Assembly: GCA_009843785.1 (NCBI GenBank)
Contig: VYCT01000369.1
Coordinates: 3,655-67,654 of the forward strand
Reading direction: 5' to 3'
DNA: 64,000 nt
Origin: Candidatus Poribacteria bacterium
GTDB lineage: Bacteria; Poribacteria; WGA-4E; WGA-3G
The position numbers were made by a program, and so were the translations under genes. Under the pieces are notes generated by a model. The model made no database searches. It was not told the origin of the DNA and saw only the letters and a program-made list of their open reading frames with translations. This document shows positions 275-50,501 of this stretch, one piece after another. Positions within the stretch are counted from its first letter, which is position 1. Each line of letters starts with the position of its first letter.

Positions 275-320
275 GTGTTCTTATAGGCATCAGTTTTCAG
301 TTAATCCACTTCACCGAATC

Positions 321-1108: not shown

Positions 1109-1156
1109 AGCACAAAAATTCTCTCTCTACCTCACAGTTTGAGGAAGGCACGGCTT

Positions 1157-4100
1157 ATGCAGCACAAACTCTGCGCAAATTGTGGGTTTCTGAACCCGTC
1201 ATTTAAATTTTGCGGTGAATGCGGTATGCCGCTTGATGGCACCTCGCGTTCGGCTGAACGCCCCGCAGCAGATACGGTTTCTATTGAACAGGCTTTGCCA
1301 CACGGGGCGGAACGCCGCCAGCTAACCGTCCTTTTTTGTGATATTGTTGACTCCACCGCATTCACCGAAAAACTGGATCCTGAAGAACTCCGAAATCTCT
1401 TAGAAGTGTACCGGACATGTATCATGGAGGTGGTTTTAGCACAAAACGGGCATATCGCGCGCTACTTCGGGGACGGGATCCTCGTTTATTTCGGCTATCC
1501 GATCGCACACGAAGACACAGCCCATCGCGCCGTGAGAGCCGCGTTAGGGATCGTCGCCGCTATAGAAACACTGAATCCGTATCTCCATCAAACCTTCGGC
1601 GTAGAGATTAACGTTCGGATTAGCATCGATACAGGACGGGTTGTCGTCTGGCATATCTCAGGACAAGAAGCTCCCGAAGCGATTGACATCGTCGGGAAAA
1701 TGCCGAACGTCGCCGCAAGGATGGAAAAACTCGCGACACCGAACACCGTTGTGATTGGTGATACAACGCATCAATTGGTTGAAGGCTTTTTCAAGTGTGA
1801 GGCACTCGGGGCATCTATACTCCGCGGTATTTCGCAGCCCGTGAACATTTATCAGGTGTCGGGTGAAATCCCAGCGCAAAGCCGACTCGATATCGCCAGT
1901 GAGAGCGGATTGACACCCCTTATCGGACGAGAGCAAGAGGTTGAACTTCTCAAACAAGGGTGGGCACAAGCACTCGCCGCCAACGGACAAGCACTCCTTA
2001 TTCAAGGAGAAGCCGGTATCGGAAAATCGAGATGTGTGCAGCTGATTCAGGAGCATGTTGAGAGCCACCCGGATGCCGTCACCTTAGAAGGTCGATGCTC
2101 GCCGTATTACCAGAATAGTCCGCTGTATCCTATCCTTTCACTGTTCCAAGAACACGTCGTGCAGTTTACAAACACAGATACGGCACAGAGAAGACTCGAA
2201 AAACTTGAAAACTTGCTGCGGGACTATAACGTTTCGACTGTCGGGCAAGCGGTAGAAGCGCAAGCGGATACGCCGGAAACGCTGCCGCTCCTCGCTGAAT
2301 TATTGGACATACCTTTTGAAATACAGCGGCGCACGGAAACCGGTACGGGTGCTGGTTTATATGGTAAACCGGTCAAACAGGATACATATCCCTCCGAATG
2401 GCAACGCAGACAGCGGCGACAACAGACGTTGGAAGTACTCGTCCAAGTATTGCTGAAGATGTCAGAACGGAAACCGATCCTCTTTGTCGTGGAGGACCTC
2501 CACTGGATCGATCCGTCGAGCATAGAATTTCTTACACTCTTAATCGAAAGGATCGAAAACGCCAGAATTTTCACAATCTTGTCCTGGCGATCCGACACAC
2601 ACCGCTCAATCGTATACAAAAGCCGGCACAACGTACAGCCGAATGAAGATGGGAACCCGCAGACTGTTCCTGATGGGAACTTTACAAATCCTGCCATAGA
2701 TAGAGAAATTCTGGAGAAACTCCTGCGACCCACATGGGCGAAGACCCTGCAGTTAGAGGCACTCACACCGCCCGAAGTCGAAACAATGATTCAGCACGTT
2801 GCGGGCGACACACAACTGCCGCCAAACCTATTAACCAAGATCGTCGAAATGACTGAAGGGGTACCTCTGTTTGTTGAGGAACTCACCCAGATGATGCTGT
2901 CTGAAGTGCCCCATCCCGATGATCGGGATCGGTCGCCTTCAGAAGAAGGCGACGCACTGACACTCTCTTCTGATGCCCTGGATGCAACGCGTTCACAGCC
3001 CCAAACAATGCGGGTGCCTGTGACGCTACAAGATTTGTTGACAGCGCGTCTCGACGAACTCGGTCCCGCGAAGGAGATCATCCAACTCGGAGCGACCCTC
3101 GGTAGAGAGTGGACAGCAGAGCTGCTTCACAAGATCGCAGCCGGCGTTGATCTCGGGAATAATATCTTCACTGATTTCTCATCCTTGAAAGATGAATTGG
3201 ACAAATTAGTAAACGGATTCATCCTCAATCGCAATGAAACGACTGACAACCAGTTTCGCTATACCTTTAGGCATCCGCTTCTGCGTGAGACGGCTTATCA
3301 ATCGCTGCTAAAAAGCAGACGCCAGCAGTATCATCAACAGATTGCAGAGGTCTTGGCGCGCGCGGACGGTTTCCAACCGGAAGTCGTCGCGTACCACTAC
3401 ACCGAAGCCGGGCTGCCCGAAAAAGCCGTTGACTATTGGCACAGCGCGGCGCACCGTGCCTTAGAACGCTCCGCAAACGTGGAGGGTGTGCGCCACATCA
3501 TGCAAGGACTCGCGGCACTTGAAACGCTTTCAACAAATATCAACACCCCGGAACTGCGGGAGGCCACCGAACGGCGGGAACTGGAGCTGCAAACGACACT
3601 CGGTACCGCACTGATTGCGACTAAAGGATATGCATCGCCGGAGGTGGAAGTCGCCTATACACGCGCACGCGAACTCCTGGAAACACTTGAAAAAAGCGCG
3701 GAAGCATACCATCATGATGATCACAATCGCATGACTTCCGCAGAGGAGACCGCTTTAGCAGGCAGCTCCAATGTCTCCCTCGATGGAATAAAAGATCTTC
3801 GATTCCCGGTGCTGTTCGGGCTGTGGCTCTCTCATCTCGTCCGCGGACGCCTCCGCTCCGCCCGTGAACTCGGCGAAGCCTGTTATGCCATTGCCAAACA
3901 AGCTGAGAATCAAGCGTTTGAAGTTGAGGCCCATCGTGCCCTCGGTGCGACACTCTACTATTTGAGCGAATTTAATAGCGCATTAGCACACTTGGAGGCA
4001 GGCATTGAACGTTATCAGCCGCAGCAACATCCGGTCCCAGCGTTTCTCCACTACGCGGCAGAACCCGGAATGACACTCCTCGCCTATTCTTCACCGCTCT

Positions 4101-4867
4101 TGTGGTGCATCGGCTATCCGAGCCAAGCGGAAGAACGGATTCATCAGGCTGTGAGCATCGGAAAGGACACGAACCATCCGTTTAGTGAGGCGGTATCACT
4201 TCACTTCAAGACCGTGCTTTATCAGTACCGAGGCGAACCGGCGGAAGTAAACACCTCAGCAACACAGATGTTACAGATATGTCAAGAGCACGGGTTTTCC
4301 GCATGGGAAGCCGCAGCAACGGTACTCAAGGGTTGGGCATTCGCAGCACAGAACTTCCCTGAAGAAGGCATCGCTATAATTCGTGAAGGCATCAACGCTT
4401 GGAAAGAGACAAGAGGTGAATTACTCATGCCGCTCTTTCTCGCGCTTCTTGGACAAGCTTATCAACGCGCAGGGCAATATAATTTAGCCTTGCAGACACT
4501 TGATACTGCTTTGCATGTCATCACACGTACAGGAGAACGTACCTACGCGGCAGAACTCGCGCGACAGAAGGGCGAACTCTGTCTTATATTTGCCGAGGAA
4601 ACTGAGACCGGCAGCAACGAGAATACACAATCAACCGTCGCAGAAGCGGAATCCTATTTTCAGGAAGCGTTAGCGATCGCACGACAACAAGACGCAAAAT
4701 CATGGGAACTCCGAGCTGCACTGAGCTTAAGTGAATTATGGCGGACACAAAATCGTCGTGAAGACGCATACAATTTACTTCAACCGATATATGCATGGTT
4801 CTCAGAAGGGTTGGATACAAGTGACCTTATACGTGCCAAAAACTTCTTAAAGGAATTGGAGGAATAG
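1157..4867 (+). CDS. Class III adenylate/guanylate cyclase fused to a STAND-type P-loop ATPase and a TPR array, with an N-terminal zinc ribbon
   Basis: CANCGFLNPSFKFCGECG zinc ribbon. Cyclase core RRQLTVLFCDIVDSTAFTE...YFGDGILVYFGYP...GKMPNVAARME. Walker A is LIQGEAGIGKSR, followed by a long TPR-like C-terminus. ATG 1157 has GAGGAAGG 8 nt upstream; the ORF-track TTG at 1139 is less likely. Confidence 0.85.
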   Translation: MQHKLCANCGFLNPSFKFCGECGMPLDGTSRSAERPAADTVSIEQALPHGAERRQLTVLFCDIVDSTAFTEKLDPEELRNLLEVYRTCIMEVVLAQNGHIARYFGDGILVYFGYPIAHEDTAHRAVRAALGIVAAIETLNPYLHQTFGVEINVRISIDTGRVVVWHISGQEAPEAIDIVGKMPNVAARMEKLATPNTVVIGDTTHQLVEGFFKCEALGASILRGISQPVNIYQVSGEIPAQSRLDIASESGLTPLIGREQEVELLKQGWAQALAANGQALLIQGEAGIGKSRCVQLIQEHVESHPDAVTLEGRCSPYYQNSPLYPILSLFQEHVVQFTNTDTAQRRLEKLENLLRDYNVSTVGQAVEAQADTPETLPLLAELLDIPFEIQRRTETGTGAGLYGKPVKQDTYPSEWQRRQRRQQTLEVLVQVLLKMSERKPILFVVEDLHWIDPSSIEFLTLLIERIENARIFTILSWRSDTHRSIVYKSRHNVQPNEDGNPQTVPDGNFTNPAIDREILEKLLRPTWAKTLQLEALTPPEVETMIQHVAGDTQLPPNLLTKIVEMTEGVPLFVEELTQMMLSEVPHPDDRDRSPSEEGDALTLSSDALDATRSQPQTMRVPVTLQDLLTARLDELGPAKEIIQLGATLGREWTAELLHKIAAGVDLGNNIFTDFSSLKDELDKLVNGFILNRNETTDNQFRYTFRHPLLRETAYQSLLKSRRQQYHQQIAEVLARADGFQPEVVAYHYTEAGLPEKAVDYWHSAAHRALERSANVEGVRHIMQGLAALETLSTNINTPELREATERRELELQTTLGTALIATKGYASPEVEVAYTRARELLETLEKSAEAYHHDDHNRMTSAEETALAGSSNVSLDGIKDLRFPVLFGLWLSHLVRGRLRSARELGEACYAIAKQAENQAFEVEAHRALGATLYYLSEFNSALAHLEAGIERYQPQQHPVPAFLHYAAEPGMTLLAYSSPLLWCIGYPSQAEERIHQAVSIGKDTNHPFSEAVSLHFKTVLYQYRGEPAEVNTSATQMLQICQEHGFSAWEAAATVLKGWAFAAQNFPEEGIAIIREGINAWKETRGELLMPLFLALLGQAYQRAGQYNLALQTLDTALHVITRTGERTYAAELARQKGELCLIFAEETETGSNENTQSTVAEAESYFQEALAIARQQDAKSWELRAALSLSELWRTQNRREDAYNLLQPIYAWFSEGLDTSDLIRAKNFLKELEE

Positions 4868-5004
4868 TTATCAGTTATCGGTTATCAGTTATCGGTTAAA
4901 GAGGGCTACTCTGGCAGTAACAGAAAATGCACCTGACACAACAAACCTCTTAACCGAAGACTGAAGACCGAAAGGTTTTTTCGCAAGAAAAACCGAACCG
5001 ACAA
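4867..5004. repeat. Heptad-periodic inverted-repeat intergenic element (copy i)
   Basis: Left arm GTTATCA GTTATCG GTTATCA GTTATCG GTTAAAG (4867-4901). Right arm CTTAACC GAAGACT GAAGACC GAAAGGT (4949-4976). An AT-rich hairpin GGTTTTTTC-GCAA-GAAAAACC follows, then ACCGACAAC. Confidence 0.8.
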
Positions 5005-5016
5005 CTATTAAAAAAT

Positions 5017-5877
5017 ATGAGACTTGGCGTTGTTGGACTCTGCGGCGACTTCCGCACACTGACATCAGATGAAATCGCAAACATTAAGGCTTTGGAATTT
5101 ACGGGATTAAGCTTCCATTTCCGCAGCGCGGAAATCCCGTCTGTGCCACCCGATGCTTGTAACCGCTGTGTGCAAATGTTAGAATCAGCGAAACTTGACC
5201 TCGTGCAATTCGGCATAACTTACGACGAGTGTCTTTTTCATCCAGATGCCGCTGTCCGAGAAGCCGCTATTGAAAGCGTCCAACGCGGTATGGCAACGGC
5301 TGTTTCGCTCAACGCACATCACTATCTGTTCCGTCCGGGCAGTCTCAATCCTGATGGGGCTTGGACTTCCCACCGAGATAACCATCTCCCAGAATCGATG
5401 GAACGGTTGATTGAGACCCTGAAACCGATAGCAGCACATGCCGAACGACATGAACTGACGCTTGTCATGGAGACGCACGCCGTTTCTATTATGGGGTCAC
5501 CGGAAATCTGCCGCGAAGTTGTAGAGCAGGTCGGTTCCGATCGACTTCGCATCGTCATGGATTTCGTCAACCACTTTCAAACACTCCGACAGGTCTACGA
5601 CAGCGAAGACCGTCTGAACCACATTTTCGACGTAATGGGTCCCGTGGCACCGATGGCGCATATTAAAGACATCAGCGTTCAGAACGGTTTGGTACTTCAC
5701 CTTAATGAGGAAGTTCCTGGCGAGGGTGAATTGGCACTCGGTGTAGCACTAAAACGTTTCGACGCACTCTATCCAGACGGCTATGGATTAATAGAACATC
5801 TACCCGCGGAGAAAATTCCGCTCGCGAATCGCAACGTCCGGCGAATTGCCGCCGAAAACGGCGTTCATATCTATTGA
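5017..5877 (+). CDS. Sugar phosphate isomerase/epimerase (xylose isomerase-like TIM barrel)
   Basis: The length and the patterns LTLVMETHA and RIVMDFVNH are typical of AP-endonuclease-2/xylose-isomerase-like TIM barrels. Confidence 0.6.
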   Translation: MRLGVVGLCGDFRTLTSDEIANIKALEFTGLSFHFRSAEIPSVPPDACNRCVQMLESAKLDLVQFGITYDECLFHPDAAVREAAIESVQRGMATAVSLNAHHYLFRPGSLNPDGAWTSHRDNHLPESMERLIETLKPIAAHAERHELTLVMETHAVSIMGSPEICREVVEQVGSDRLRIVMDFVNHFQTLRQVYDSEDRLNHIFDVMGPVAPMAHIKDISVQNGLVLHLNEEVPGEGELALGVALKRFDALYPDGYGLIEHLPAEKIPLANRNVRRIAAENGVHIY

Positions 5878-5887
5878 GGATTGACCC

Positions 5888-8431
5888 ATGATTAAAAACA
5901 TTAGGATAACACATCTTCTAAGGCACCTCTTCCAATCCTATATACTGACCACTATTTTTCTGACGTTCACGCTTTTGTCTACGGCATTTGGACAAGACGA
6001 GACGATCACCGAAACTGTCACAGAAAGTGCACGCGGCCTTTGGTCGCAAGTGGAAGTTTACGGCATAGTGATTATAGTCCTCTTTCTTTTTAGTGCCTTC
6101 TTTTATCTCCTCAGACTTTTTCAGAAAGACAAACTCCTGAAGACACTCCTGAACAAATATGTCGTCTTTCAGATGAAGGAGAACAAACGTTACCGAGGCA
6201 CCATGCGGCTTGAATTCACCGGCATGGAAATTATCTCTGAAGAATCGCGACAGCGCGGACACGCCCCCAGTTATATCTTCACAAACGAGGAACGTGATAA
6301 CCAAATCCTCGCATACGTTCGCTATCATGATACAATGAACGAGCGTGAACTTAGGGAACGCGCCTGGGAGCTCGAACGCTTTTACCATCCACCCTTTATC
6401 TACAAGATACGGCGGAAAATCCGAAATATGTTCGTCGCTCTGAGAGAAGCCTCAAAAAATGCGATTAGCATGGTACTGCAAAGCGTTAAGAAAAATGTCG
6501 GTGGACAGTTTCAACGCTACAACACAGTCTACCAAAAAGCTACAGATGGGAAAGGAGATATAACAGGCCTCGATAGGTTAGACCAAACGACTGAACACTT
6601 GGATAAACAAGAGACCTATGAGCGGCTCATTGAACGCCTCGTCGGCACCCGGATCAAAGTCGAGACAGAGACCGGGGTGTATACGGCTATCCTCAAAGAC
6701 TATAATCAAAAGCATATTGCATTAATGGATGTCAAAGATGGAGACAACAATGGCTACAGAGATACTTGGAACTATGTTCACGAATATAAACACGATATTA
6801 ATGCGCTGAACCGCCGCGATGACCGCGGCTTGCGCTGTCGCGCCGAAGGCAACGATGAAAACGGATATTTTCTCGTTTTTGAAAACAATACACCTTACCA
6901 AATTCAACTCGGGCATGTCGTGCTGCACGATGGGGCCCCCGAATGGGCAAGGAACTATGAATTCAAACACCATATTCAAGCCTTCAGTGTTCAAAAACTT
7001 AAAATTGAACCGGTGGCGCAACACAACGTCGGCCCGTTTCAACGGATTAGAGCGCGTGAGCGACTCACGATCAGAAATTATAAAAAAATTAAACTCGATT
7101 TCCGCTCTTTCCGGGACGCTGACATCATTTTCCCGCGAAAATATTGTACTATTGTCGAAAGCGCAGAGAAATATCAACCCGAACTCTTCAGTCTAAGCGG
7201 CTTGACCGACACAATTCTGGACATGAGCGATACCGAGGACATCGCCATCGCAGACAAAGAGGGAAAACCCATCCACGGCATCAATGTCGTCCACGGATAC
7301 GTGACGAACGTCAACGAAGAACGCATTGATTTGAAGACAATCGATACCAGCTACAGTCGGCGCTGGGATGTTGAAAACGCCTTCCGCCGTTTTGATAATA
7401 AATTCCGTCACGGATTTCCTATTCATAAGAGGCTCCTACCGATAAATCGCGCCAAGATTACAGCGCACGCCTCTATCGTCGAGCAGATACACGATAATGC
7501 TGTTCGGCACGAGGCCTTAGCACCGCTCGTTTATCCCGGACGCAGCTTAGATACCGCAGAACAGCGCGCACGCCGCCGAAAGTTGATACGTAACCGCGTC
7601 GTCGGCGGCATCAATGCTCACTTTAACACCAAGTTTTGGAAACCGAATACGGGGGTTCCCAGGACACCCGGTGTCACGCGCGCAGAAGTCCAGATGGCAA
7701 TGCCAATCAAACTTATGGCATTTACGGGGAATACCTCTACAGTCGAATTTCCGGTACTACAACGTTTTGAATATATTCAGGAACATCATATGATTTATAG
7801 GGAGGTCCCGGATCTACGCACCGATCGACTCCCGAAAACCGATATTTTGTGGATCGGCAACGGTGAAATTTACAAAGCCGGCTACCGACTGAACATTGAT
7901 ACTGAACACCGGATCAAAAATTTCGTCAGCCAAGGGGGTGTCGCCATCGTCTCTGGACAAGAGATCACAGCCAGCACGAAACAGCGCCGTGGAACTGGAT
8001 GGATACCGGAACCACTCACCGGCATCGCATGCGACGAAAGTTACGAATTATTCCCCACATTGCGAGGGAAACGTTCACGTATCTTCCAACACCCGAATCC
8101 ACTGAATGGCAACCACCACACCGATCCGGAGGCGATGGAACAACCCCTGATTCGACTCGATGATATGTGGCTCGATCCACTCGGGAAATGGACATCTCTC
8201 GCTAAAACTAATATCGCTGCAGCCGGATTGCCAAACGACGGGCTTGAAAAGGCATCCGCGCTGCTCCTACTCCCCTTCCAGAAGGGTTTATACATCGTTA
8301 CCAGCTTGAAGAATGAGACAGAAGAGGATGTACGCATCAACGACAAAATTATGGAAAACCTGCTCCATTTCTCTGTCAAATGGCTGGATAAGCAACGTTC
8401 CCCGCGCAAGTTAGAGAGACCTATCAGGTGA
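5888..8431 (+). CDS. Large membrane-anchored protein of unknown function (847 aa)
   Basis: Two N-terminal hydrophobic helices (ILTTIFLTFTLLSTAFG; YGIVIIVLFLFSAFFYLL). No recognisable catalytic motif. The C-terminal 200 aa (DILWIGNGE...FVSQGGVAIVSGQE) faintly resemble GATase1-like/DUF4159 folds. Confidence 0.7.
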   Translation: MIKNIRITHLLRHLFQSYILTTIFLTFTLLSTAFGQDETITETVTESARGLWSQVEVYGIVIIVLFLFSAFFYLLRLFQKDKLLKTLLNKYVVFQMKENKRYRGTMRLEFTGMEIISEESRQRGHAPSYIFTNEERDNQILAYVRYHDTMNERELRERAWELERFYHPPFIYKIRRKIRNMFVALREASKNAISMVLQSVKKNVGGQFQRYNTVYQKATDGKGDITGLDRLDQTTEHLDKQETYERLIERLVGTRIKVETETGVYTAILKDYNQKHIALMDVKDGDNNGYRDTWNYVHEYKHDINALNRRDDRGLRCRAEGNDENGYFLVFENNTPYQIQLGHVVLHDGAPEWARNYEFKHHIQAFSVQKLKIEPVAQHNVGPFQRIRARERLTIRNYKKIKLDFRSFRDADIIFPRKYCTIVESAEKYQPELFSLSGLTDTILDMSDTEDIAIADKEGKPIHGINVVHGYVTNVNEERIDLKTIDTSYSRRWDVENAFRRFDNKFRHGFPIHKRLLPINRAKITAHASIVEQIHDNAVRHEALAPLVYPGRSLDTAEQRARRRKLIRNRVVGGINAHFNTKFWKPNTGVPRTPGVTRAEVQMAMPIKLMAFTGNTSTVEFPVLQRFEYIQEHHMIYREVPDLRTDRLPKTDILWIGNGEIYKAGYRLNIDTEHRIKNFVSQGGVAIVSGQEITASTKQRRGTGWIPEPLTGIACDESYELFPTLRGKRSRIFQHPNPLNGNHHTDPEAMEQPLIRLDDMWLDPLGKWTSLAKTNIAAAGLPNDGLEKASALLLLPFQKGLYIVTSLKNETEEDVRINDKIMENLLHFSVKWLDKQRSPRKLERPIR

Positions 8432-9650: not shown

Positions 9651-10835
9651 TCACGCCTGGCGAATATTTAAAAATACTAATTCAGCAGTACGTTCAGCGG
9701 CACCGGCTGTGCCGAGCTGCGCATAAACTGCTTGAAGCGCTTCTCGTTGTGTTTCCCGTTTTTGTGGATGCTTCAGAAAATCAAGTGCCAACGCCGTCAA
9801 GGCAGTCGGTGTCAGTTCCGTCTGTAGCAGCTCCGGGACAATGTCCCGTCCAGCGATGAGATTAGGAAGTCCGCTCCGGTTTAAAGGGGTCAACGCCTTG
9901 ATGATATGCCAGTTGAATGCTGCCGTACAAAAGAGGATAATCATCGGTGCACCGATACAGGTTGCTTCAAGCGTCGCCGTGCCGGAAGTAACCAGCAGCA
10001 GGGTTGATGCCCGCATCGCTTGATAGGTCTGATTTTCCACAATCTTAATGGACGGGAGCTGTAGGGGCTGGGTTACCCAGCCCCTACACAGTTCCTGCTG
10101 GTGTTTTGCAATGAGGTCACGTGAAATACCTGGTGCTAACGGGAGAATCCAGTGCGCCTTCGGATAGACCTGAGCGATGTTCGCAGCGGCTTTTAGCATG
10201 ACTGGCAAAATGTGACGGATCTCGGAACGGCGACTCCCTGGCATCAACCCGATAACAGGTGCTTCCAGATCGTCTGCCGTTTCACATATATGAAGGCGTT
10301 CGCGTGCGGCTTGTGCACTGAGGGGTGTCTGTGCGAAATCGACGAGCGGATGTCCTACGAATTCCGCGTTCGCACCTGAGTTTCGGTAAAATTCCGCTTC
10401 AAAAGGGAAGATCGCTGCGACGACGTTTGCCCACTTTGCCAGTTTTCGGGCACGGTTCGCACGCCACGCCCACGCCTTTGGTGGAATGTAATAGACAACC
10501 GAAACACCCTGTCTCCGAGCAAATTTCGCTAACGGCATATTAAACTCAGCAAAATCTACCAGGAGGAGCACATCGGGGTGTTCCTCACGGATACGCCTTT
10601 TCAGATATGCCTGCTTGCGAAGGAACATTGGTAGGACAGTGATGACATCGGCAAAACCCATGACAGCGGAATCTCGGATGTGAAGGTCAAGTTTCACCGA
10701 TGCCGCTTCCATCTGGTCGCCGCCCATCCCGAAAAGTGTTATATCTGGACACAGTGCCTTGAGTTGCCGAGCAACATGAGAAGCGTGCAAGTCACCAGAA
10801 GGTTCCCCAGCAACAATCATAACTTTCGGAGCCAT
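9651..10835 (-). CDS. lpxB: Lipid-A-disaccharide synthase (GT19)
   Basis: N-terminal MIVAGEPSGDLHASHVARQLK and C-terminal VTSGTATLEATCIGAPMII are characteristic of LpxB. Confidence 0.9.
   Translation of the reverse strand: MAPKVMIVAGEPSGDLHASHVARQLKALCPDITLFGMGGDQMEAASVKLDLHIRDSAVMGFADVITVLPMFLRKQAYLKRRIREEHPDVLLLVDFAEFNMPLAKFARRQGVSVVYYIPPKAWAWRANRARKLAKWANVVAAIFPFEAEFYRNSGANAEFVGHPLVDFAQTPLSAQAARERLHICETADDLEAPVIGLMPGSRRSEIRHILPVMLKAAANIAQVYPKAHWILPLAPGISRDLIAKHQQELCRGWVTQPLQLPSIKIVENQTYQAMRASTLLLVTSGTATLEATCIGAPMIILFCTAAFNWHIIKALTPLNRSGLPNLIAGRDIVPELLQTELTPTALTALALDFLKHPQKRETQREALQAVYAQLGTAGAAERTAELVFLNIRQA
10061..10087. repeat. 27-bp palindrome GTAGGGGCTGGGTTACCCAGCCCCTAC inside lpxB (REP-like, in frame)
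   Basis: Read directly as 13+1+13 nt self-complementary. It is identical to 14767-14793 and is translated as (C)RGWVTQPL(Q) within LpxB. Confidence 0.9.
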
Positions 10836-10850
10836 AGTTTTCAGAGAAAG

Positions 10851-10992
10851 GGTTTTCGGTCATCCGAGTCCTGGTTTTCGGTTTTCGGTTAAGACATTGT
10901 GTTGGAAACGTTTCCTATTACTGCCACAAGAAACCTCTTTAACCGATTACTGACTACCGAAAGATTTTTTGAAAAAAATCGTACTGATAACC
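10851..10992. repeat. Heptad-periodic inverted-repeat intergenic element (copy ii)
   Basis: GTTTTCG GTTTTCG GTTAAGA (10874-10894) ... TTTAACC GATTACT GACTACC GAAAGAT (10938-10965). An AT palindrome GATTTTTTGAAAAAAATC follows. The element fills the argC-lpxB spacer. Confidence 0.8.
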
Positions 10993-10994
10993 AC

Positions 10995-12041
10995 TCACGG
11001 CATCATCCCCGGTACCTTCAGCCCATCGGTTTCATTGAAACCGAACATCAGGTTGAGATTCTGCACAACAGCACCGGCAGCACCTTTACCGAGGTTATCA
11101 ATCGCTGCCATTGCGACGACGCGGCGGGTCCGCGTATCAACTTCAAGTCCAACATCGCAATAATTACTGCCGAGCACCGCCTTTGTCTCCGGGTATGTAT
11201 TCGACGGAAGCACCCGAACAAACGGTTCATGCTCATAAAAACCTGAATAGATGCCGAGAGTTTCTTCAGTGGACATCTCCTCGGTGAGCCGCATATAGAC
11301 AGTGCTGAGAATCCCCCGCGTCATTGGAACAAGGTGTGGCGTGAACGTCACACGAACCGGGGTTTCCGATGCAACAGCACTTAATTCCTGTTCAATTTCG
11401 GGTGTATGCCGATGCGAACCGATGTTGTAGGCGACAACGTTAGACTCTCGATTCGGGTAATGTGTATTTTCACGCGGTTTCGGACCGGCACCCGAAATGC
11501 CGGATTTGGCATCAACAATGATGGAGTCCAATTCCACGATGCCTTGCGCGACTAACGGCATCGCTGCAAGTATGGCACTCGTCGGGTAACACCCCGGATT
11601 CGCTACAAGTTGGGCATCCCGAATCTTGGCACGATACCGTTCCGGCAACCCATATATCGCTTGCGGCATGAGTTCCGCGCTTGTATGTTCAGCATGGTAC
11701 CACGCTTCGTAGGTTTCGGCATCTCCGAGTCGATAGTCCGCACTGAAATCCACGACGCGCAGCCCTTGTGCCAGAATTTGTGGCACGAACGCCATCGCAA
11801 CTTTGTGCGGAACTGCAAGCACAACGACATCCACTATCTCTTTAAGGGAGTCAAGGTCTAACGGTTCAAATGCGGACGATAGAAACCCGCGGAGGTTCGG
11901 CAGGACACTCTCAATACACTGCCCCGCATAGGTTTCAGAGGTACAAAGCGCGACCTGTAACCCCCCAGAATGGTTAGCGAGAAACCGTAACAACTCACTC
12001 CCGCTATAGCCTGATGCACCAACAATCCCAACTTTTATCAT
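10995..12041 (-). CDS. argC: N-acetyl-gamma-glutamyl-phosphate reductase
   Basis: MIKVGIVGASGYSGSELLRFL Rossmann N-terminus and the active-site block NPGCYPTS. Confidence 0.9.
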   Translation of the reverse strand: MIKVGIVGASGYSGSELLRFLANHSGGLQVALCTSETYAGQCIESVLPNLRGFLSSAFEPLDLDSLKEIVDVVVLAVPHKVAMAFVPQILAQGLRVVDFSADYRLGDAETYEAWYHAEHTSAELMPQAIYGLPERYRAKIRDAQLVANPGCYPTSAILAAMPLVAQGIVELDSIIVDAKSGISGAGPKPRENTHYPNRESNVVAYNIGSHRHTPEIEQELSAVASETPVRVTFTPHLVPMTRGILSTVYMRLTEEMSTEETLGIYSGFYEHEPFVRVLPSNTYPETKAVLGSNYCDVGLEVDTRTRRVVAMAAIDNLGKGAAGAVVQNLNLMFGFNETDGLKVPGMMP

Positions 12042-14247: not shown

Positions 14248-14257
14248 AGAAAAAGAT

Positions 14258-14315
14258 TGGAAGGATGGAACGGTGGAAGGATAGGTCCCCAACCTTCCAC
14301 CGTTCCATGCTTCCA
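14258..14315 (+). terminator. Long GC-rich hairpin downstream of 13468-14247
   Basis: TGGAAGGATGGAACGGTGGAAGG (14258-14280) pairs with CCTTCCACCGTTCCATGCTTCCA (14293-14315). That is 23 bp with one mismatch and a 12-nt loop. No U-tract follows. Confidence 0.5.
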
Positions 14316-14349
14316 CTTATTCGTACTGAACCGCAAGGAAAATTAAAAA

Positions 14350-15639
14350 ATGGCGACCTATACTGCCCGCGGTGGCAAAGACACCGTCATCACATCCGAC
14401 GAAAAACGCGCACTGCTACACGAAGCACTCCTCAAATTGGGCGGCATCCCGAAAAAGATTTTGGTCATCCCGCCGGATATAACACGCCTCCACTCGAACG
14501 CTGGCGAACTCACCCAAATTCTCTACGAGTTATGGGACACCGCAAACGGCACCACCTTTGATATATTGCCCGCTATCGGCACACATGCGCCGATGACCAA
14601 AGCACAGATTGCTGAAATGTACGGTGATCTATCCAAGGCGACATATCACGTCCACAACTGGCGGACCGGGTTATACCACTTCGGCGAAGTGCCATCTGAA
14701 CTCGTGCAAGAGGTTTCGGGCGGCAAGCTTGATTATAGCATACCTGTTGCCGTAAACCGCCGTATTGTAGGGGCTGGGTTACCCAGCCCCTACGAACTCA
14801 TCATCTCGGTCGGACAGGTAATCCCACACGAGGTTATCGGTATCGCCAACGGATTTAAAAACATCCTCGTCGGTGCAGGCGGGGTTGAGATGATTAACAA
14901 ATCGCACTTCCTCGGTGCCGTAGACGGCATGGAACGCCTGATGGGACGCACCGATACCTCTGTCAGGAGAGTCCTAAATTACGCGCATGCAAACTACCTA
15001 AAACAACTCGGTATTTTATATGTCATGAGCGTCATGGATGCCGATGCCTCTGGAGAACGCGTGATGCGCGGGCTTTACGTCGGCGATGATGCACAGACCT
15101 TTGAAACCGCTGCGGAATTGAGCAGAGCCGTTAATATGACGTTCTTGGACGCTCCTCTATCAAAAGTAGTCGTTTATTTGGATCCGCGGGAGTTTAAAAG
15201 CACATGGCTCGGTAACAAGGCGATCTATCGCACCCGGATGGCAATGGCGGACGACGGTGAGTTGATTATCATCGCTCCCGGACTCCGAGAGTTCGGTGAG
15301 GACGCAGAAATCGATCGTCTCATCCGAAAATACGGCTATCGGGGCACACCTGCGACCCTCAACGCTGTCTCGGAGAACCCGGAGTTGCAAGAGAACCTCT
15401 CCGCCGCTGCACACCTGATTCACGGCAGCACCGAAGGACGTTTCAAGGTTGTCTATGCGACGGAACACCTCACCCAAACCGAAATCGAATCGGTCGGCTA
15501 CCAATGGGCTCCCCTCAACGAAGTGATTGCCGAATACAACCCCGAAACGCTTACCGATGGCTTCAACGACCGTGGCTTCTTCTACATCAGCGAACCCGGA
15601 CAAGGGTTGTGGGCACTCCGCTCTCAGTTCAGTGAGTAA
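14350..15639 (+). CDS. LarA-like (DUF2088, nickel-dependent lactate racemase family) protein
   Basis: Size about 430 aa. The N-terminal pattern KILVIPPDITRLHS ... AIGTHAPM ... VGQVIPHEVIG recalls the LarA N-terminal domain. Confidence 0.6.
   Translation: MATYTARGGKDTVITSDEKRALLHEALLKLGGIPKKILVIPPDITRLHSNAGELTQILYELWDTANGTTFDILPAIGTHAPMTKAQIAEMYGDLSKATYHVHNWRTGLYHFGEVPSELVQEVSGGKLDYSIPVAVNRRIVGAGLPSPYELIISVGQVIPHEVIGIANGFKNILVGAGGVEMINKSHFLGAVDGMERLMGRTDTSVRRVLNYAHANYLKQLGILYVMSVMDADASGERVMRGLYVGDDAQTFETAAELSRAVNMTFLDAPLSKVVVYLDPREFKSTWLGNKAIYRTRMAMADDGELIIIAPGLREFGEDAEIDRLIRKYGYRGTPATLNAVSENPELQENLSAAAHLIHGSTEGRFKVVYATEHLTQTEIESVGYQWAPLNEVIAEYNPETLTDGFNDRGFFYISEPGQGLWALRSQFSE
14767..14793. 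repeat. Second copy of the 27-bp palindrome GTAGGGGCTGGGTTACCCAGCCCCTAC, inside the LarA-like gene
   Basis: Identical 27/27 to 10061-10087. Codon-aligned here and translated VGAGLPSPY. Confidence 0.9.
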
Positions 15640-19581: not shown

Positions 19582-20013
19582 CTATTCAAAAAGCACTCCC
19601 GTGAAATCTTCAAGGCTTTTCACGTTAACAGCAATGAAATGCAGCTGCTCAAGACGTTGCAAATCGTCTATATTTTCAAGGGCTGGCGTTAGGGCGCGCA
19701 CTGCTTCTCTGTGGAATTTCGTATTGAGGACTGTCAAAAGGTTTTTGCGAGTAGCCTCTTTCGCACCTTGCTCAATACCTTGTGCCATAAATTTTTCGCG
19801 TTGGTGTTGCCAAACAGAAGATTCTTGCATGAGTTCCTCCGGTATGCGTTCAAATAAACTTCGATCATGGACAAGCCCACCAAAGAGGGAGAGCCCGTAG
19901 AGTAAGTTCCCTTTTGTTGGTGCCTCAATAGATGTGGCCACCGTTGCATCAATGCATTGTTGCACCCACCGGTCAAGGGGCATATCGTCAGGCGGTTTCA
20001 TCAGTTGCGCCAT
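19582..20013 (-). CDS. DUF4351-type protein. It resembles the C-terminal part of Rpn-family recombination-promoting nuclease/transposase-like proteins and lacks the N-terminal nuclease domain.
   Basis: QGIEQGAKEATRKNLLTVLNTKFHREAVRALTPALENIDDLQRLEQLHFIAVNVKSLEDF matches the EG..EG...LL..L..RFG......I..L....LE.L......F.SL.D pattern of DUF4351. Start taken at ATG 20013. Confidence 0.5.
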   Translation of the reverse strand: MAQLMKPPDDMPLDRWVQQCIDATVATSIEAPTKGNLLYGLSLFGGLVHDRSLFERIPEELMQESSVWQHQREKFMAQGIEQGAKEATRKNLLTVLNTKFHREAVRALTPALENIDDLQRLEQLHFIAVNVKSLEDFTGVLFE

Positions 20014-20035
20014 AGAGATATTATATAACAGGTCG

Positions 20036-20746
20036 TTAGCAGATGTCAAGGTCAAGCAACGCTGGCAACTCAGACAAGCTCCGAATTGTCTCCCCCCATC
20101 TGCCTATTTGGGTGCCGTCTCGGTCAATGAGTATTGGACGAATTCCTGCGTTTTTCGCACCGATGATATCCGCTTCGTAGGTATCGCCTACGTGGACGGC
20201 TTCCTCTGCCGAAACACCGACCTGTTTCAGCGTCCACTCGAAAATATGCGGATCCGGCTTCGCAGACCGGACACGTTCATCATGTGAAGAGGTAATCGTG
20301 TCAAAATAGTCGGCAATTCCCAACCGTTCGGTGAGTGGATCCAACGGTGTATCCCAATTGGAAACAATCGCTAACTTGAAACCCTTGTCTCGTAAATGCT
20401 CAAGGGTCGGAACCGTGTCATCGTAGAGCGTTGCAGCATTGGCAGCAAAAAGGGAGTGCTCAGACTGTAGCAACTCCCATGTCATTTGGTCCAAGTAGTC
20501 CCGAACACCGAGCGCCGCCAGAAACTCACGGTAACTATCAATGATCTGCTGCATCGTCTCCAGCAGGTCATGGGTCATCGGATCCGATCCTGATGCATCC
20601 GCATAGAGATTCTCGCGTGCTGTGTCATAGTGTTCCCAATCGACTTCACAAGCATACCGCTCTACGATTTTTTGAACTCTCGGTCTAAGTGATTGTCCCC
20701 AAACCCCTAATGTCTGGTAAAAATCAAAGAAAACAGCTTTTATCAT
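20036..20746 (-). CDS. HAD-superfamily hydrolase (paralog B)
   Basis: MIKAVFFDFYQTLG, IVSNWD, KPDPHIF, HVGDTYEADIIGA. It shares a near-identical 62-nt tract with paralog A. Confidence 0.8.
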   Translation of the reverse strand: MIKAVFFDFYQTLGVWGQSLRPRVQKIVERYACEVDWEHYDTARENLYADASGSDPMTHDLLETMQQIIDSYREFLAALGVRDYLDQMTWELLQSEHSLFAANAATLYDDTVPTLEHLRDKGFKLAIVSNWDTPLDPLTERLGIADYFDTITSSHDERVRSAKPDPHIFEWTLKQVGVSAEEAVHVGDTYEADIIGAKNAGIRPILIDRDGTQIGRWGETIRSLSELPALLDLDIC

Positions 20747-20752
20747 TCTAAT

Positions 20753-20833
20753 GGTTGTCAGTTATCGGCTATCAGTTATCAGTCAGAGAATACTCTTCTT
20801 TCTGACAACCGATAGCTAAGCACTGATAGTGAC
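20753..20833. repeat. Heptad-periodic inverted-repeat intergenic element (copy iii, short)
   Basis: GTTGTCA GTTATCG GCTATCA GTTATCA GTCAGAG (20754-20788) ... CTGACAA CCGATAG CTAAGCA CTGATAG (20802-20829). Confidence 0.75.
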
Positions 20834-20923
20834 TCCTTTTTTATACAGAAATGGCAAGTTAGGCAGTTTTTGTGAGCGTACCGCGCGTCATGCAAAGTTG
20901 AATACCACACCTATTGAAGCATC

Positions 20924-21616
20924 CTAATGACGCATATAGCGGGTCGGATCCGGAATACCGGCATCTTTAAAGCCTTTCTTTCGGAGCAGGCAACTATCAC
21001 AACCACCACACGCTCTACCTTCCGCATCAGGGTCGTAGCAGCTGAAGGTGAGACTATAATCCACACCGAGTGCCGCGCCAATTTGGATAATCTCCGCCTT
21101 CGTTTTATCAATCAGTGGTGAGCGGATTTTCAGCTTTGTTTTCCCTTCAACACCCGCTTGCGTGGCAAAGTTCGCCATCGTTTGATAGGCATTTATATAT
21201 TCGGGACGACAATCCGGATAACCGCTGTAATCCATGGCGTTGACACCGATAAAAATAGTATCCGCGACAAGGACTTCAGCATAAGCGAGGGCGTAGGAGA
21301 GAAAAATTGTGTTTCGGGCGGGGACGTAAGTTATCGGTATGTCATCCTCCATTTCCATATCAGAACGGTTTTTGGGAACAGCTATATCTGCCGTCAATGC
21401 GGATCCGCCAAAGGTCCGAAGGTCGATGTCAACGACTCTATGCTGTTTCACACCCAGCGCCTTTGCGACGTTTTTTGCGCACTGTAGTTCCACAGCGTGT
21501 CGTTGACCATACCGAAAACTCATCGCGTAAGTTTCGTAACCTTCATCGTGCGCGATGGCGAGGGTTGTTGTTGAATCTAAGCCGCCACTTAGTAAGACGA
21601 CTGCCTTTTTAAGCAC
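20924..21616 (-). CDS. queC: 7-cyano-7-deazaguanine synthase
   Basis: [12 protein letters not shown]-loop and the C-terminal zinc cluster [14 protein letters not shown]. Confidence 0.9.
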
Positions 21617-21752
21617 TGATTGCCTTCCGAAAAGAAGCAGAAAGTTGACAAGTTTGAAAGTGTTCTAAAGTTTTGCAAGTTATGTTTGATACACAACCCA
21701 ACTTTAGTTCACTTTAGCTACACTTCACAACTTTCCACCTTTTTAATTTTTT

Positions 21753-22295
21753 CTATTCTCGCTCAAACTCTAATTTCGCGAAACGCAGGAAGATACCGCC
21801 ACCCGGTCTGGCGAGGGGCCCATTGATCGCCAAACACGCGATGACATGTTTCGCACCCGGCTCCGCGCTTTCGGTGACAACGACGCGTTGAGGGGTGTTG
21901 AAACCGGAGGCGGCACCACGCCCCGACTCCCCGAAGGCCAGGTCAATCTCGCCATCGACCCAGACTTCACCGTAGTCGTCAATACACGTGTGGAACCACA
22001 CCTTTGAACCGGCGACCGAAACGCCATCAACTTCTTCAGGAAGTGTCACGGTAATCCGATACCAACCGAAGCAGAGTCCTTCGGAGACGACTGCTTGGAT
22101 GTCTTCACAAGTTCCCCAGTCTGAATCGTCATAATCGGCATGACGGGCGGGACTCTCTTTCATCAGATTAACTAAACCGCCATTGGGTTCACCCGGAACG
22201 AGTCCATCGGCATAACGCCACTCGGAATTGGTGAGTTCACGATGTTCTGCATTTTCTAAATCAAGTTCTGCAATAACCATTATGCTTTCCTTCAT
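21753..22295 (-). CDS. Hypothetical protein, galactose-binding-domain-like (GH2 N-terminal sugar-binding type) fold suspected
   Basis: GWYRITVTLPEEVDGVSVAGSKVWFHTCIDDYGEVWVDGE resembles the WYR..F.lP...g..v.L.F.gvd..a.VwvNG block. ATG 22295 was chosen because the longer ORF-track start runs through a REP-like hairpin. Confidence 0.5.
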   Translation of the reverse strand: MKESIMVIAELDLENAEHRELTNSEWRYADGLVPGEPNGGLVNLMKESPARHADYDDSDWGTCEDIQAVVSEGLCFGWYRITVTLPEEVDGVSVAGSKVWFHTCIDDYGEVWVDGEIDLAFGESGRGAASGFNTPQRVVVTESAEPGAKHVIACLAINGPLARPGGGIFLRFAKLEFERE

Positions 22296-22297
22296 TT

Positions 22298-22321
22298 TGT
22301 AGTCGCGGCTCCTAACCGCGG
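22298..22321 (+). repeat. GTAG-headed REP-like hairpin TGTAG-TCGCGG-CTCCTAA-CCGCGG
   Basis: Read directly. GTAG is at 22299-22302, followed by a short GC stem. It lies immediately 5' of the 21753-22295 start codon. Confidence 0.5.
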
Positions 22322-22427
22322 TTTTTGTGATGCCGTGCACACATATAAAGTGCACCTACCGGTTTATGAAATTAAGTGGTAATCCTCGATAAAAAGGGAA
22401 CGAACAAATGGAAAACCTGGCAAAGAC

Positions 22428-23603: not shown

Positions 23604-23614
23604 TCTTTTTATTC

Positions 23615-23743
23615 GTTGTCGGTTATCGGTTATCAGTTGTTAGTTAAGGGCGGTTTAGAACAACTTACCCCAATTTGGAGTATTCCAGAAAGTTGTGAAT
23701 TTTACACCAAAATTTCTTAACCGATAACTGACGACTGACACCC
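23615..23743. repeat. Heptad-periodic inverted-repeat intergenic element (copy iv)
   Basis: GTTGTCG GTTATCG GTTATCA GTTGTTA GTTAAGG (23615-23649) ... CTTAACC GATAACT GACGACT GACACCC (23716-23743). It fills the spacer between the NuoEF stop and the MFS start. Confidence 0.8.
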
Positions 23744-23744
23744 C

Positions 23745-50446: not shown

Positions 50447-50501
50447 AAAACTAACGCTATACCAACATGCCTCGCGCGACACTATATTTTTGGAAAGAAC
50501 T

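Follow-up and report, generated by a model that had tools for sequence, protein, structure and literature searches.

Noncoding palindromic elements built from TAACTGA-type heptad arrays in gene spacers of Candidatus Poribacteria

Four intergenic spacers of a 64,000-nucleotide stretch of Candidatus Poribacteria DNA (GenBank assembly GCA_009843785.1, contig VYCT01000369.1, positions 3,655 to 67,654; hereafter the window) hold members of a noncoding palindromic repeat family, about 80 to 160 bp in length, that belongs to one clade of Candidatus Poribacteria. These members, designated elements i to iv (Table 1), carry a 5′ array of 7-nt units (heptads) and a complementary 3′ array of YGANAAC, which read as a tandem repeat is TAACTGA. 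Arms, core, and defined ends together make a discrete element that is more than a bare tandem repeat, and comparison of orthologous spacers shows copies appearing, disappearing, giving way to members of other subfamilies, or shrinking to collapsed stubs. By its sequence, the heptad is of an already published kind: GTTATCA is the reverse complement of TGATAAC, a unit of the tandem TAACTGA repeat, and falls in the STRR class. We give about even chances to the reading that the family is a DNA-level selfish or slippage-driven repeat, noncoding and resembling MITEs (transposable elements of the miniature inverted-repeat kind) or REPINs.

Abundance, structure, and polarity of the arrays

A protein encoded beside the elements assigned the window to Candidatus Poribacteria, whose members are symbionts of sponges. 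The window was compared with 80 orthologous 20-kb poribacterial loci (L001 to L080), comprising a closer clade (the window and L001 to L056; 1.18 Mb) and a sister clade at 79% identity (L057 to L080; 0.45 Mb). Arrays of GTTNTCR, which contain CRGT, were classed as type L, and arrays of YGANAAC, which contain ACYG, as type R. Chains of at least four CRGT/ACYG motifs were counted at periods of 5 to 12 nt. At period 7, 62 chains were found in the closer clade and none in the sister clade, and none were found in the closer clade at periods 5, 6, and 8 to 12. This difference between periods speaks against the possibility, raised in the initial annotation of the window, that the pattern is no more frequent than composition predicts. 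Per 100 kb, the closer clade held 13.6 arrays and the sister clade 0.9, and at least 74% of arrays were intergenic, compared to a noncoding share of DNA of 12%. The heptad feature is real, far beyond chance, and characteristic of one poribacterial clade. In tallies of independent loci, which rest on about 80 loci, 75 of 83 elements lay between co-directional genes and 3 of 83 in divergent, promoter-bearing spacers, which represent 15% of intergenic length.

A wider set of 161 poribacterial sequences (2.26 Mb), with 229 arms, served to characterize the ends and interior of the elements. The six bases outside the first heptad were most often AATAGT (48 arms), AATGGT (20 arms), or TATAGT (17 arms), corresponding to an outer 5′ terminus of (A/T)AT(A/G)GT; the opposite terminus reads ...GACAACTAT(T). 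The outermost heptad was enriched for GTTGTCR, inner heptads were mostly GTTATCR, and about 65% of arms led into TAAAGAG or TAAGAG. TAT was the commonest variable triplet in either arm, and neighboring heptads within one arm agreed at 2.16 of 3 variable positions. The core is oriented, with GTTAAAGAGG followed after about 20 nt or more by CCTCTTAAC, so that one A is bulged. Short centers (20 to 26 nt) share the loose consensus nnnYTKRTTnAACmRAnnn, and longer ones enclose further small palindromes, such as TGTAACAAT...ATTGTTACA. Reversed and complemented, the center of element ii is homologous to that of element i, and both show homology to centers in L001, L003, L242, L246, L312, L315, and L316.

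The junction of arm and core (GTTATCR-GTTATCR-GTTAARG) had 119 matches in a genome collection, 80 of them in Poribacteria. The others were in Cyanobacteria, Beggiatoa-like Gammaproteobacteria, Bacteroidota, Verrucomicrobiota, Deltaproteobacteria, Acidobacteriota, and two Firmicutes, with a simpler GTTAAGG...CCTTAAC hairpin at some of these loci. All eight matches to GGTTAAAGAGG-N14-30-CCTCTTAACC in the 596-Gb genome collection were poribacterial; the oriented core GTTAAAGAGG...CCTCTTAAC is specific to Poribacteria. The arm alone was matched by about 20 unrelated contigs per metatranscriptome.

The order of the arms was nearly invariant. With arms paired within 260 nt, the poribacterial arrangements were LR (46 cases), LLR (7 cases), and LRLR (1 case), and RL was never seen, giving 54:0 for L then R. 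Such opposed pairs made up 54 of 206 array clusters, and many arms were alone with a degenerate partner. In other phyla, adjacent pairs at 120 loci retrieved with the strand-neutral pattern (CRGTNNN)x5 were LR in 30 cases and RL in 2, and the 39 nonporibacterial matches of a second scan gave LR in 9 and RL in 1 (summed, 39 versus 3). Convergent polarity was also found in Acidobacteriota, Chloroflexota, Planctomycetota, Cyanobacteria, Bacteroidota, and others. Arms in the reverse order would form an equally good hairpin, so that hairpin potential does not account for the polarity. As a result of the polarity, the TAACTGA-type arm on the sense strand faces the downstream start codon in any gene orientation: the sense-strand array after a stop codon is of the TCAGTTA type and stop-free, and that before a start codon is of the TAACTGA type, with stops in all three frames. 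An excess of sense-5′ solitary arms in the syntenic set was weaker in independent loci (19 L and 16 R in ++ spacers; 12 R and 7 L in -- spacers) and was set aside.

It is conceivable, at a probability that we place well under one-half, that NNNCRGT arrays and their complements converge on a central hairpin as a general rule, which would imply a conserved strand-directed, sequence-specific machine able to build or propagate the arrays starting from the hairpin. Under such a rule, tentative candidates for the machine would be a protein that binds heptads or an enzyme of the HUH/RAYT-like type acting on single-strand DNA.

Turnover of orthologous spacers and transcription

Orthologues of the spacer holding element i were compared across 56 genomes. 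They contained arrays of GTTATCR, GTTATAA, GTAGCCA, GTTACCA, GCTATCG, or GCCNTCA, unrelated palindromes in some genomes, or a short plain spacer (L010, L014, L028, and L041), and the orthologous spacer of the sister clade contained no element. At 5878 to 5887 the window has a 10-nt spacer with no element. The corresponding spacer is filled by a complete element in L001 and L003 (98% amino-acid identity) and by members of other subfamilies in L018, L019, L026, L027, L032, L034, L020, and L040. The contig of a metatranscriptome strain, which at about 3.7% of positions does not match the window, has 159 extra letters exactly at this spacer, and in a more distant strain element iv is replaced by 154 other letters. 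Collapsed stubs only, such as GGTTAACC, were found in L056 and L310. Orthologous spacers thus gain, lose, and swap heptad elements. Whole-heptad differences between orthologous arrays were seen for L246 and L316 (5 versus 4) and for L201 and L238 (4 versus 3); the arrays of L044 and L053 differ by 21 nt.

With inverted termini, no coding capacity, a length below about 400 bp, and multiple copies, the poribacterial elements have the structure of MITEs. No open reading frame (ORF) was found between the arms of any copy examined, and no transposase was found among the examined ORFs adjoining elements, a whole-genome gene census not having been made. Nine L...R pairs in the 2.26 Mb lie 0.3 to 4 kb apart and flank housekeeping genes (e.g., rpoA-rplQ, asd, and a PD40 protein gene). 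Of the three roles first proposed for the elements (insulator, binding array, and MITE-like mobile element), the last is best supported, by the conserved ends and core, dispersal, and polymorphism in presence, absence, and replacement, but neither a consistent target duplication nor an autonomous partner was found.

Two further observations concern the coding sequences beside the elements. At L001 (9928 to 9960), L003 (8471 to 8491), and L006 (9878 to 9906), the heptad array supplies the last codons and the stop codon of the upstream gene, as in ...GAG TTA CGA GTT ACC AGT GAC CAG TAA; in these three loci, the stop-free 5′ arm is recruited into coding sequence. In a close strain (contigs X24 to X26), window positions 19986 to 20936 (949 nt, comprising the HAD hydrolase gene and element iii) are replaced by 600 other letters, a local difference in gene content with a boundary near element iii.

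Single sponge metatranscriptome contigs from close strains span element i (window positions 3800 to 5753 or 5875) and element iv (21293 to 24783). Because these contigs are unbroken through i and iv, the elements are very probably cotranscribed with their neighbors. Of 44 elements between co-directional genes, 21 folded better on the sense strand and 23 on the antisense strand. Relative to transcription, the core was unbiased in its orientation (13 versus 9 independent loci), and an orientation bias of the bulge (15 versus 7) was pseudoreplicated and was not upheld in independent loci. Arm-to-arm comparison of variable triplets gave 1.54 of 3 within elements and 1.63 of 3 between elements. RNAalifold, applied to 22 short cores, returned generic arm pairs only, with a covariation term of -0.46 kcal/mol, and the single pair changing on both sides was the innermost R/Y position. 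Covariation from arm to arm was not seen. Searches against Rfam yielded no match at the gathering score in the window and none at an E value of ≤1 on the elements. Promoter-like sites (26 versus 21.9 expected) and terminator-like sites (21 versus 22.4 expected) were not enriched, and those inside elements were weak and mostly on the wrong strand. No T-tract followed the stems on the transcribed strand, as an intrinsic terminator would have. No signature of selection on an RNA stem was found, nor one of terminator or promoter function.

Elements in the window and associated palindromes

Direct reading confirmed the four elements of the window where they had been proposed, together with their 7-nt period and the opposed GTTNTCR and YGANAAC arrays in all four copies; Tandem Repeats Finder likewise returned arrays of period 7 at each of the four sites. 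Because reverse complementation leaves the layout unchanged, elements ii to iv, among minus-strand genes, show the same plus-strand layout as element i. The GGTTAAG/CTTAACC core that had been described as kept is present as GTTAA(A)G...CTT(T)AAC in i, ii, and iv but not in iii, where GTTAAG/CTTAAC is absent on direct reading. Several details were revised: element ii had been placed at 10851 and truly starts further left (Table 1), the mini-hairpins of i and ii had not been separated out, and a degenerate fifth copy had been missed. The arm remnant of this fifth copy is followed by a different nested palindrome (321 to 376), and orthologous spacers hold full elements in L019, L026, L027, L029, and L032.

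The placement relative to genes was as first described. In the sense of transcription, elements i, ii, and iv begin 0 to 2 nt past the upstream stop codon and element iii begins 90 nt past it, so that three of the four abut the stop codon; all four end 6 to 15 nt before the next start codon. The first G of the 5′ arm of element i is the final base of the TAG stop codon (4865 to 4867), and its CCGACAACTATT terminus falls 7 nt short of the ATG at 5017. The same 5′ arm was scored by Tandem Repeats Finder as period 14, 2.3 copies, and 100% match. The heptad on the start-codon side, pointed out earlier as GACAAC, is (C/T)GACAAC in i, iii, and iv and TGAAAAC in ii; it is the conserved outer terminus of the family. 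Element iv also contains GATAACTGA at 23723 to 23731. The long stem expected from pairing of the arms held for three copies: predicted RNA folding was stronger than that of shuffled sequence for element i (z-scores for the plus and minus strands, -6.3 and -8.3), element iii (-3.2 and -4.9), and element iv (-4.1 and -2.0), but element ii, at only -1.8 and -1.4, folded no better than shuffled sequence.

Table 1. Heptad elements of the window, their component parts, and flanking genes
Feature	Position	Strand	Description
Element i, whole	4863-5009		AATAG terminus, 4 heptads, core, center, core′, 2 heptads, mini-hairpin, CCGACAACTATT terminus
Element i, flanking gene	1139-4867	+	Adenylate-cyclase/AAA/TPR gene
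Element i, flanking gene	5017-5877	+	TIM-barrel gene
Element i, 5′ arm	4867-4894	+	(GTTATCA GTTATCG) x2
Element i, heptads	4867-4873, 4874-4880, 4881-4887, 4888-4894, 4895-4901		GTTATCA, GTTATCG, GTTATCA, GTTATCG, GTTAAAG, respectively
Element i, core and center	4895-4954	+	GTTAAAGAGG 4895-4904 (GTTAAAG AGG), 41-nt center, CCTCTTAAC 4946-4954
Element i, 3′ arm	4955-4972	+	CGAAGAC TGAAGAC CGAA
Element i, nested mini-hairpin	4973-4997		25 nt; stem GGTTTTT 4974-4980 / AAAAACC 4988-4994
Element ii, whole	10836-10992		Spacer of lpxB (9651-10835, -) and asd (10995-12041, -)
Element ii, 5′ heptads	10874-10880, 10881-10887		Perfect GTTTTCG copies, accompanied by degenerate ones
Element ii, core and center	10888-10893, 10934-10943		GTTAAG, center, CCTCTTTAAC
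Element ii, 3′ side			CGATTAC TGACTAC after CCTCTTTAAC
Element ii, mini-hairpin	10963-10980		
Element iii, whole	20750-20833		Spacer of HAD hydrolase gene (20036-20746, -) and queC (20924-21616, -)
Element iii, 5′ side	20754-20781		AATGGT terminus; GTTGTCA GTTATCG GCTATCA GTTATCA (heptads at the positions given)
Element iii, center and 3′ side			Short center GTCAGAG...TTTCTGAC; degenerate 3′ arm
Element iv, whole	23610-23744		Spacer of MFS transporter gene (22428-23603, -) and nuoF-like gene (23745-25403, -)
Element iv, 5′ heptads	23615-23649		GTTGTCG GTTATCG GTTATCA GTTGTTA GTTAAGG
Element iv, center and 3′ side	23716-23721		66-nt center; CTTAAC (at the position given); CGATAAC TGACGAC TGACACC
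Degenerate fifth copy	282-307	+	5′-arm remnant TATAGGCATCAGTTTTCAGTTAATCC alone

The mini-hairpins of elements i and ii belong to a recurrent module, which in L orientation reads C[AG]GT[AT]C, G, a stem of 5 to 10 bp, a loop of 3 to 5 nt, the complementary stem, C, and TTTC[AG]G. The module matched 32 times, compared to 0 to 1 times with scrambled flanks. These small hairpins, 17 to 25 nt in size, are often nested in elements and have 22 distinct stems, including GGTTTTTC, GCCTGC, GATTTTTT, GCATTGC, and GGGAAC. Stem pairing in all of them is not independent evidence, because pairing was a search criterion. Their orientation relative to transcription was unbiased (16 versus 9). An otherwise identical element i in L011 is without the 25-nt mini-hairpin, and separate metatranscriptome contigs match just 4967 to 5013, the mini-hairpin segment of element i.

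Other small palindromes and inserts were found within or near the elements. A second type of small insert in the arms, (C)TCTCACTGCGAGGCAAAC, was present in L005 (about 9880), L238 (about 560), L248 (about 3200 and about 850), and L251 (about 3250). A palindrome family, TTGACCGA(A/G)AACGCG...CGCGTT(T/C)TCGGTCAA, lies in or beside heptad elements, represented by the nested palindrome next to the fifth copy of the window and by sites in L027 (about 9900), L033 (about 13960), and L302 (about 3900). The spacer orthologous to window positions 4868 to 5016 holds another palindrome of MITE-like type, GGACTTACGCA...TGCGTAAGTCC, which encloses a GC-rich hairpin, in L004, L007, L008, L016, and L018, and in L018 this palindrome sits inside a heptad element.

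Upstream of the gene at 14350 to 15639, positions 14248 to 14349 of the window contain a near-perfect intergenic palindrome, GGAAGGATGGAACGGTGGAAGG...CCTTCCACCGTTCCATGCTTCC, whose hairpin (14258 to 14315) had only subthreshold miRNA-like matches in Rfam and is followed by CGTACTGAACCGCAAGGAAAATTAAAAA. A dispersed leader of about 60 nt, GATATACGG...CACCTAACCGAACCGCAAGGAA(A/T)AATTAAAAA, stands directly before the ATG of several unrelated poribacterial genes. Its sites include window positions 14320 to 14349, L003 at 3943, L008 at 19947, L013 at 20130, L017 at 9981, L037 at 9980, L039 at 20493 and 20519, and many others. A start codon lay within about 25 nt of 81 of 118 CGCAAGGAR sites, and the leader may be a shared promoter or 5′-untranslated-region (UTR) module.

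Among the other genes of the window, an ankyrin-repeat protein gene (51798 to 52697) contains a 99-nt tandem repeat (51940 to 52186; Tandem Repeats Finder) that corresponds to the ankyrin units; the protein is of a eukaryote-like type typical of sponge symbionts, and a sulfatase gene (50397 to 51785) adjoins. A 1,483-amino-acid protein (38704 to 43155, minus strand) combines a sacsin-like N-terminal domain with a NOV_C (NO VEIN C-terminal) domain. An 847-amino-acid protein (5888 to 8431, plus strand), conserved and syntenic across the orthologous loci examined, has a weak partial match to DDE_Tnp_1 (26.6 bits; residues 442 to 508), which may be spurious or a domesticated fragment.

Competing explanations and relation to known repeats

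If the family is selfish or slippage driven, the internal homogenization of each arm, which its heptad content shows, would most likely come about by mispairing of slipped strands in steps of 7 nt. Copies would persist only in the short stretch that separates a stop codon from the following ribosome-binding site, where they are harmless, and tolerance there only would lead elements to abut stop codons and to fill the spacer. They would be carried passively within polycistronic mRNAs, as seen at the level of contigs, in which the arms are predicted to fold into a long imperfect stem. Several points weigh against this account. Six of the seven positions of the consensus GTTNTCR are constrained at hundreds of loci with diverged centers, the same heptad turns up again in distant phyla, and a near-absolute convergent polarity extends beyond Poribacteria; purely neutral slippage would predict none of this, which hints at selection or at sequence-specific machinery. 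The centers of copies within one genome are strongly diverged, unlike those of recent MITE bursts. Multiples of 7 were not enriched among spacer-length differences between species, close pairs were too few for a judgment, and direct evidence of slippage is anecdotal here, resting otherwise on published cyanobacterial comparisons (PMC4679880). A target-site duplication did not emerge consistently from about 20 pairs of filled and empty sites, and the 2.26 Mb of poribacterial DNA yielded no autonomous copy with a transposase, complete genomes not having been searched. Counts from L001 to L056 are pseudoreplicated, since the same approximately 18 spacers recur in many genomes, and the metatranscriptome contigs are without strand or depth resolution and could include carried-over DNA. 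The heptad consensus and strict convergent polarity suggest a sequence-specific trans-acting factor, whether a mobilizing enzyme or a binding protein. Such a factor is kept in play by the tight consensus and near-absolute polarity, and the selfish or slippage-driven origin is accordingly held at only about an even probability.

The same constraint and polarity (54:0 in Poribacteria and 39:3 in other phyla) would be accounted for if the arms were binding arrays in DNA, with a small protein coating both converging arrays cooperatively and serving chromosome structuring or acting at REP/BIME-like nucleoid-protein sites. The contiguous 7-bp period fits one dimer per heptad, the features are symmetric relative to transcription as expected for a site in duplex DNA, and reporter data from Nostoc point to heptamer repeats as modulators of LexA and NtcA access (10.1101/2022.06.06.494920). 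However, divergent, promoter-bearing spacers contain fewer elements than their share of intergenic length (3 of 83 versus 15%); the arrays lie between stop codons and ribosome-binding sites, including in the rpoA-rplQ region; copies are present, absent, or replaced among close relatives, so that no single site is needed; and no candidate protein was identified. We regard binding arrays as unlikely, with perhaps one chance in several. An RNA-level cis element is about equally unlikely. It would be either an intercistronic stem-loop concerned with mRNA stability, RNase III/E processing, or poststop ribosome stalling, in the manner of REP/BIME, ERIC, or Correia elements, or a (UAACUGA)n translational leader just upstream of the ribosome-binding site, of the kind that MacGregor put forward for Beggiatoaceae. 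Contigs that read through i and iv, folding stronger than that of shuffled sequence for i, iii, and iv, the position directly after stop codons and 6 to 15 nt before start codons, and the preponderance of co-directional neighbors (75 of 83) are consistent with such an element, as is the TAACTGA-type array that faces the downstream start, usually with an AAAGGAG-type Shine-Dalgarno sequence next, which matches the forward bias in BOGUAY (PMC4679880). Against it, fold energy lacks the preference for the transcribed strand that G-U pairing would give (21 versus 23), the arms show no compensatory evolution, core and mini-hairpins occur in either orientation to transcription, element ii folds no better than shuffled sequence, and orthologous genes manage without an element.

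A classical MITE mobilized by a DDE transposase, that is, a deletion derivative of an insertion sequence (IS) with cut-and-paste insertion at TAA/TAG and a 3-nt target duplication, which would account for elements touching stop codons, appears improbable. The inverted arms with conserved outer termini, the dispersal, and the insertion polymorphism fit such an origin, and some filled sites (L012, L018, and L001) resemble TAA/TAG...TAA/TAG duplications when set against empty sites. A consistent duplication did not emerge from the systematic comparison of about 20 filled and empty pairs: several apparent insertions replace spacer bases, and the flanking TTA/TAA belongs to the palindrome itself. 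The lack of an ORF between the arms, the ordinary genes flanked by L...R pairs at 1 to 3 kb, and the divergence of centers within one genome also oppose it. The insulator cassette of the initial annotation, in which the stem would terminate transcription upstream and the downstream gene would obtain its promoter or UTR from the element, is largely refuted and very unlikely indeed. Its location between stop and start codons, and a right terminus often followed by an AAAGGAG-like Shine-Dalgarno sequence, would suit such a cassette, but the stems lack a following T-run, sites resembling promoters or terminators show no enrichment, contigs cross i and iv, and elements lie inside conserved operons.

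The closest published counterpart is the set of 169 intergenic TAACTGA direct-repeat sets of the orange Guaymas "Maribeggiatoa" (BOGUAY), which lie mostly just upstream of start codons (MacGregor 2015, PMC4679880). TAACTGA repeats were also reported from Thiomargarita, Thiocystis, 15 Cyanobacteria, and 5 Bacteroidetes; a translational role via an RNA-binding protein was proposed, and 1 of 170 sets was inverted (PMC4679880). As summarized in the same paper, heptanucleotides are the commonest long simple-sequence repeats in many prokaryotes, with polymerase slippage suggested as the source (Mrazek et al. 2007). In a Nostoc preprint, heptamer repeats modulate reporter expression (10.1101/2022.06.06.494920). 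The poribacterial arrays share with the TAACTGA repeats the identical heptad, 2 to 6 tandem copies that are often "split" by related heptads, an almost wholly intergenic location, the forward array before starts, occurrence in ribosomal-protein operons, and strain differences in 7-nt steps. In contrast to BOGUAY, where 169 of 170 sets are direct, Poribacteria, which are not among the listed taxa (PMC4679880), have opposed arrays with a conserved core, termini, and mini-hairpins, and their arrays are usually followed by a Shine-Dalgarno sequence, whereas the BOGUAY repeats replace it. Thus, the 7-nt head-to-tail unit, its sequence, the intergenic multicopy occurrence, and the prestart orientation agree with the TAACTGA/STRR type, and the restriction to direct repeats does not.

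The cyanobacterial STRR heptamers said to have been described by Mazel in 1990, CCCCAGT (STRR1) and CAACAGT (STRR3), have the form NNNCAGT, and NNNCAGT arrays were seen in Dolichospermum (L105) and Microcoleus (L096). Both families consist of intergenic tandem heptamers in hundreds of copies, and convergent L...R pairs also occur at cyanobacterial loci; they differ in phylum and dominant heptad and in the Poribacteria-specific core GTTAAAGAGG...CCTCTTAAC and termini, which turn the arrays into discrete elements. Tiny hairpins nested in heptamer arrays were reportedly described in Nostoc by Elhai and colleagues in 2008 as 21- to 27-nt "small dispersed repeats." Omega, the ribbon-helix-helix repressor of plasmid pSM19035, binds contiguous 7-bp heptads (WATCACW) in direct or inverted orientation. 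Its arrays resemble the poribacterial ones in having contiguous 7-bp units, direct and converging, and show that period-7 arrays can be cooperative binding sites, but they are operators of plasmid promoters, whereas the poribacterial arrays avoid promoter-bearing spacers.

REP sequences are short intergenic imperfect palindromes, and the replicative unit, the REPIN, consists of two inverted modules with a conserved 5′ tetranucleotide (Bertels and Rainey 2011, PMC3116915). REP, BIME, and REPIN sequences resemble the poribacterial elements in being intergenic, numbering in the hundreds, lying mostly 3′ of genes, in co-directional or convergent spacers, cotranscribed, fast evolving, and organized as inverted doublets of fixed polarity. 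The poribacterial elements differ in lacking GTAG, in having AATAGT/AATGGT termini, and in consisting of 7-nt arrays instead of a single 20- to 35-nt palindrome. Bacterial MITEs, such as Correia/CREE, ERIC, and the cyanobacterial Nezha, are similarly about 100 to 150 bp, noncoding, dispersed, cotranscribed, and polymorphic for insertion, with inverted termini, but for the poribacterial elements neither a consistent target duplication nor a parent IS was found, and they have periodic arms and diverged centers.

Among the papers searched, none joined Poribacteria with heptamer, STRR, or TAACTGA repeats. The statement that the architecture is not a described repeat class must be narrowed, given that the heptad is of the published TAACTGA/STRR type; for opposed arrays with a Poribacteria-specific core, it stands, no description having been found. 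The opposed arrays of strict polarity, the conserved outer termini, the oriented core found in Poribacteria only, and the nested mini-hairpins with copy-specific stems appear to be undescribed.

Several phyla are rich in heptanucleotide repeats of the STRR and TAACTGA types, which have served to fingerprint strains since the 1990s and whose origin is a 35-year-old puzzle. The elements described here add a new phylum, an uncultivated sponge symbiont with many complete metagenome-assembled genomes. In practical terms, they take up the spacers of operons, provide stop codons and C termini or stand in for them (L001, L003, and L006), and can be expected to break short-read assemblies and mislead gene callers. 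Their discrete boundaries allow copies to be counted, aligned, and dated, and the contrast between heptad-rich and heptad-poor poribacterial clades is a natural one for a phylogenetic-profile search for the responsible gene. If the polarity rule is true, Poribacteria, with a defined core and termini, nested mini-hairpins, and a sister clade free of the repeats, would offer a tractable system for finding the machinery that underlies heptanucleotide repeats in bacteria.

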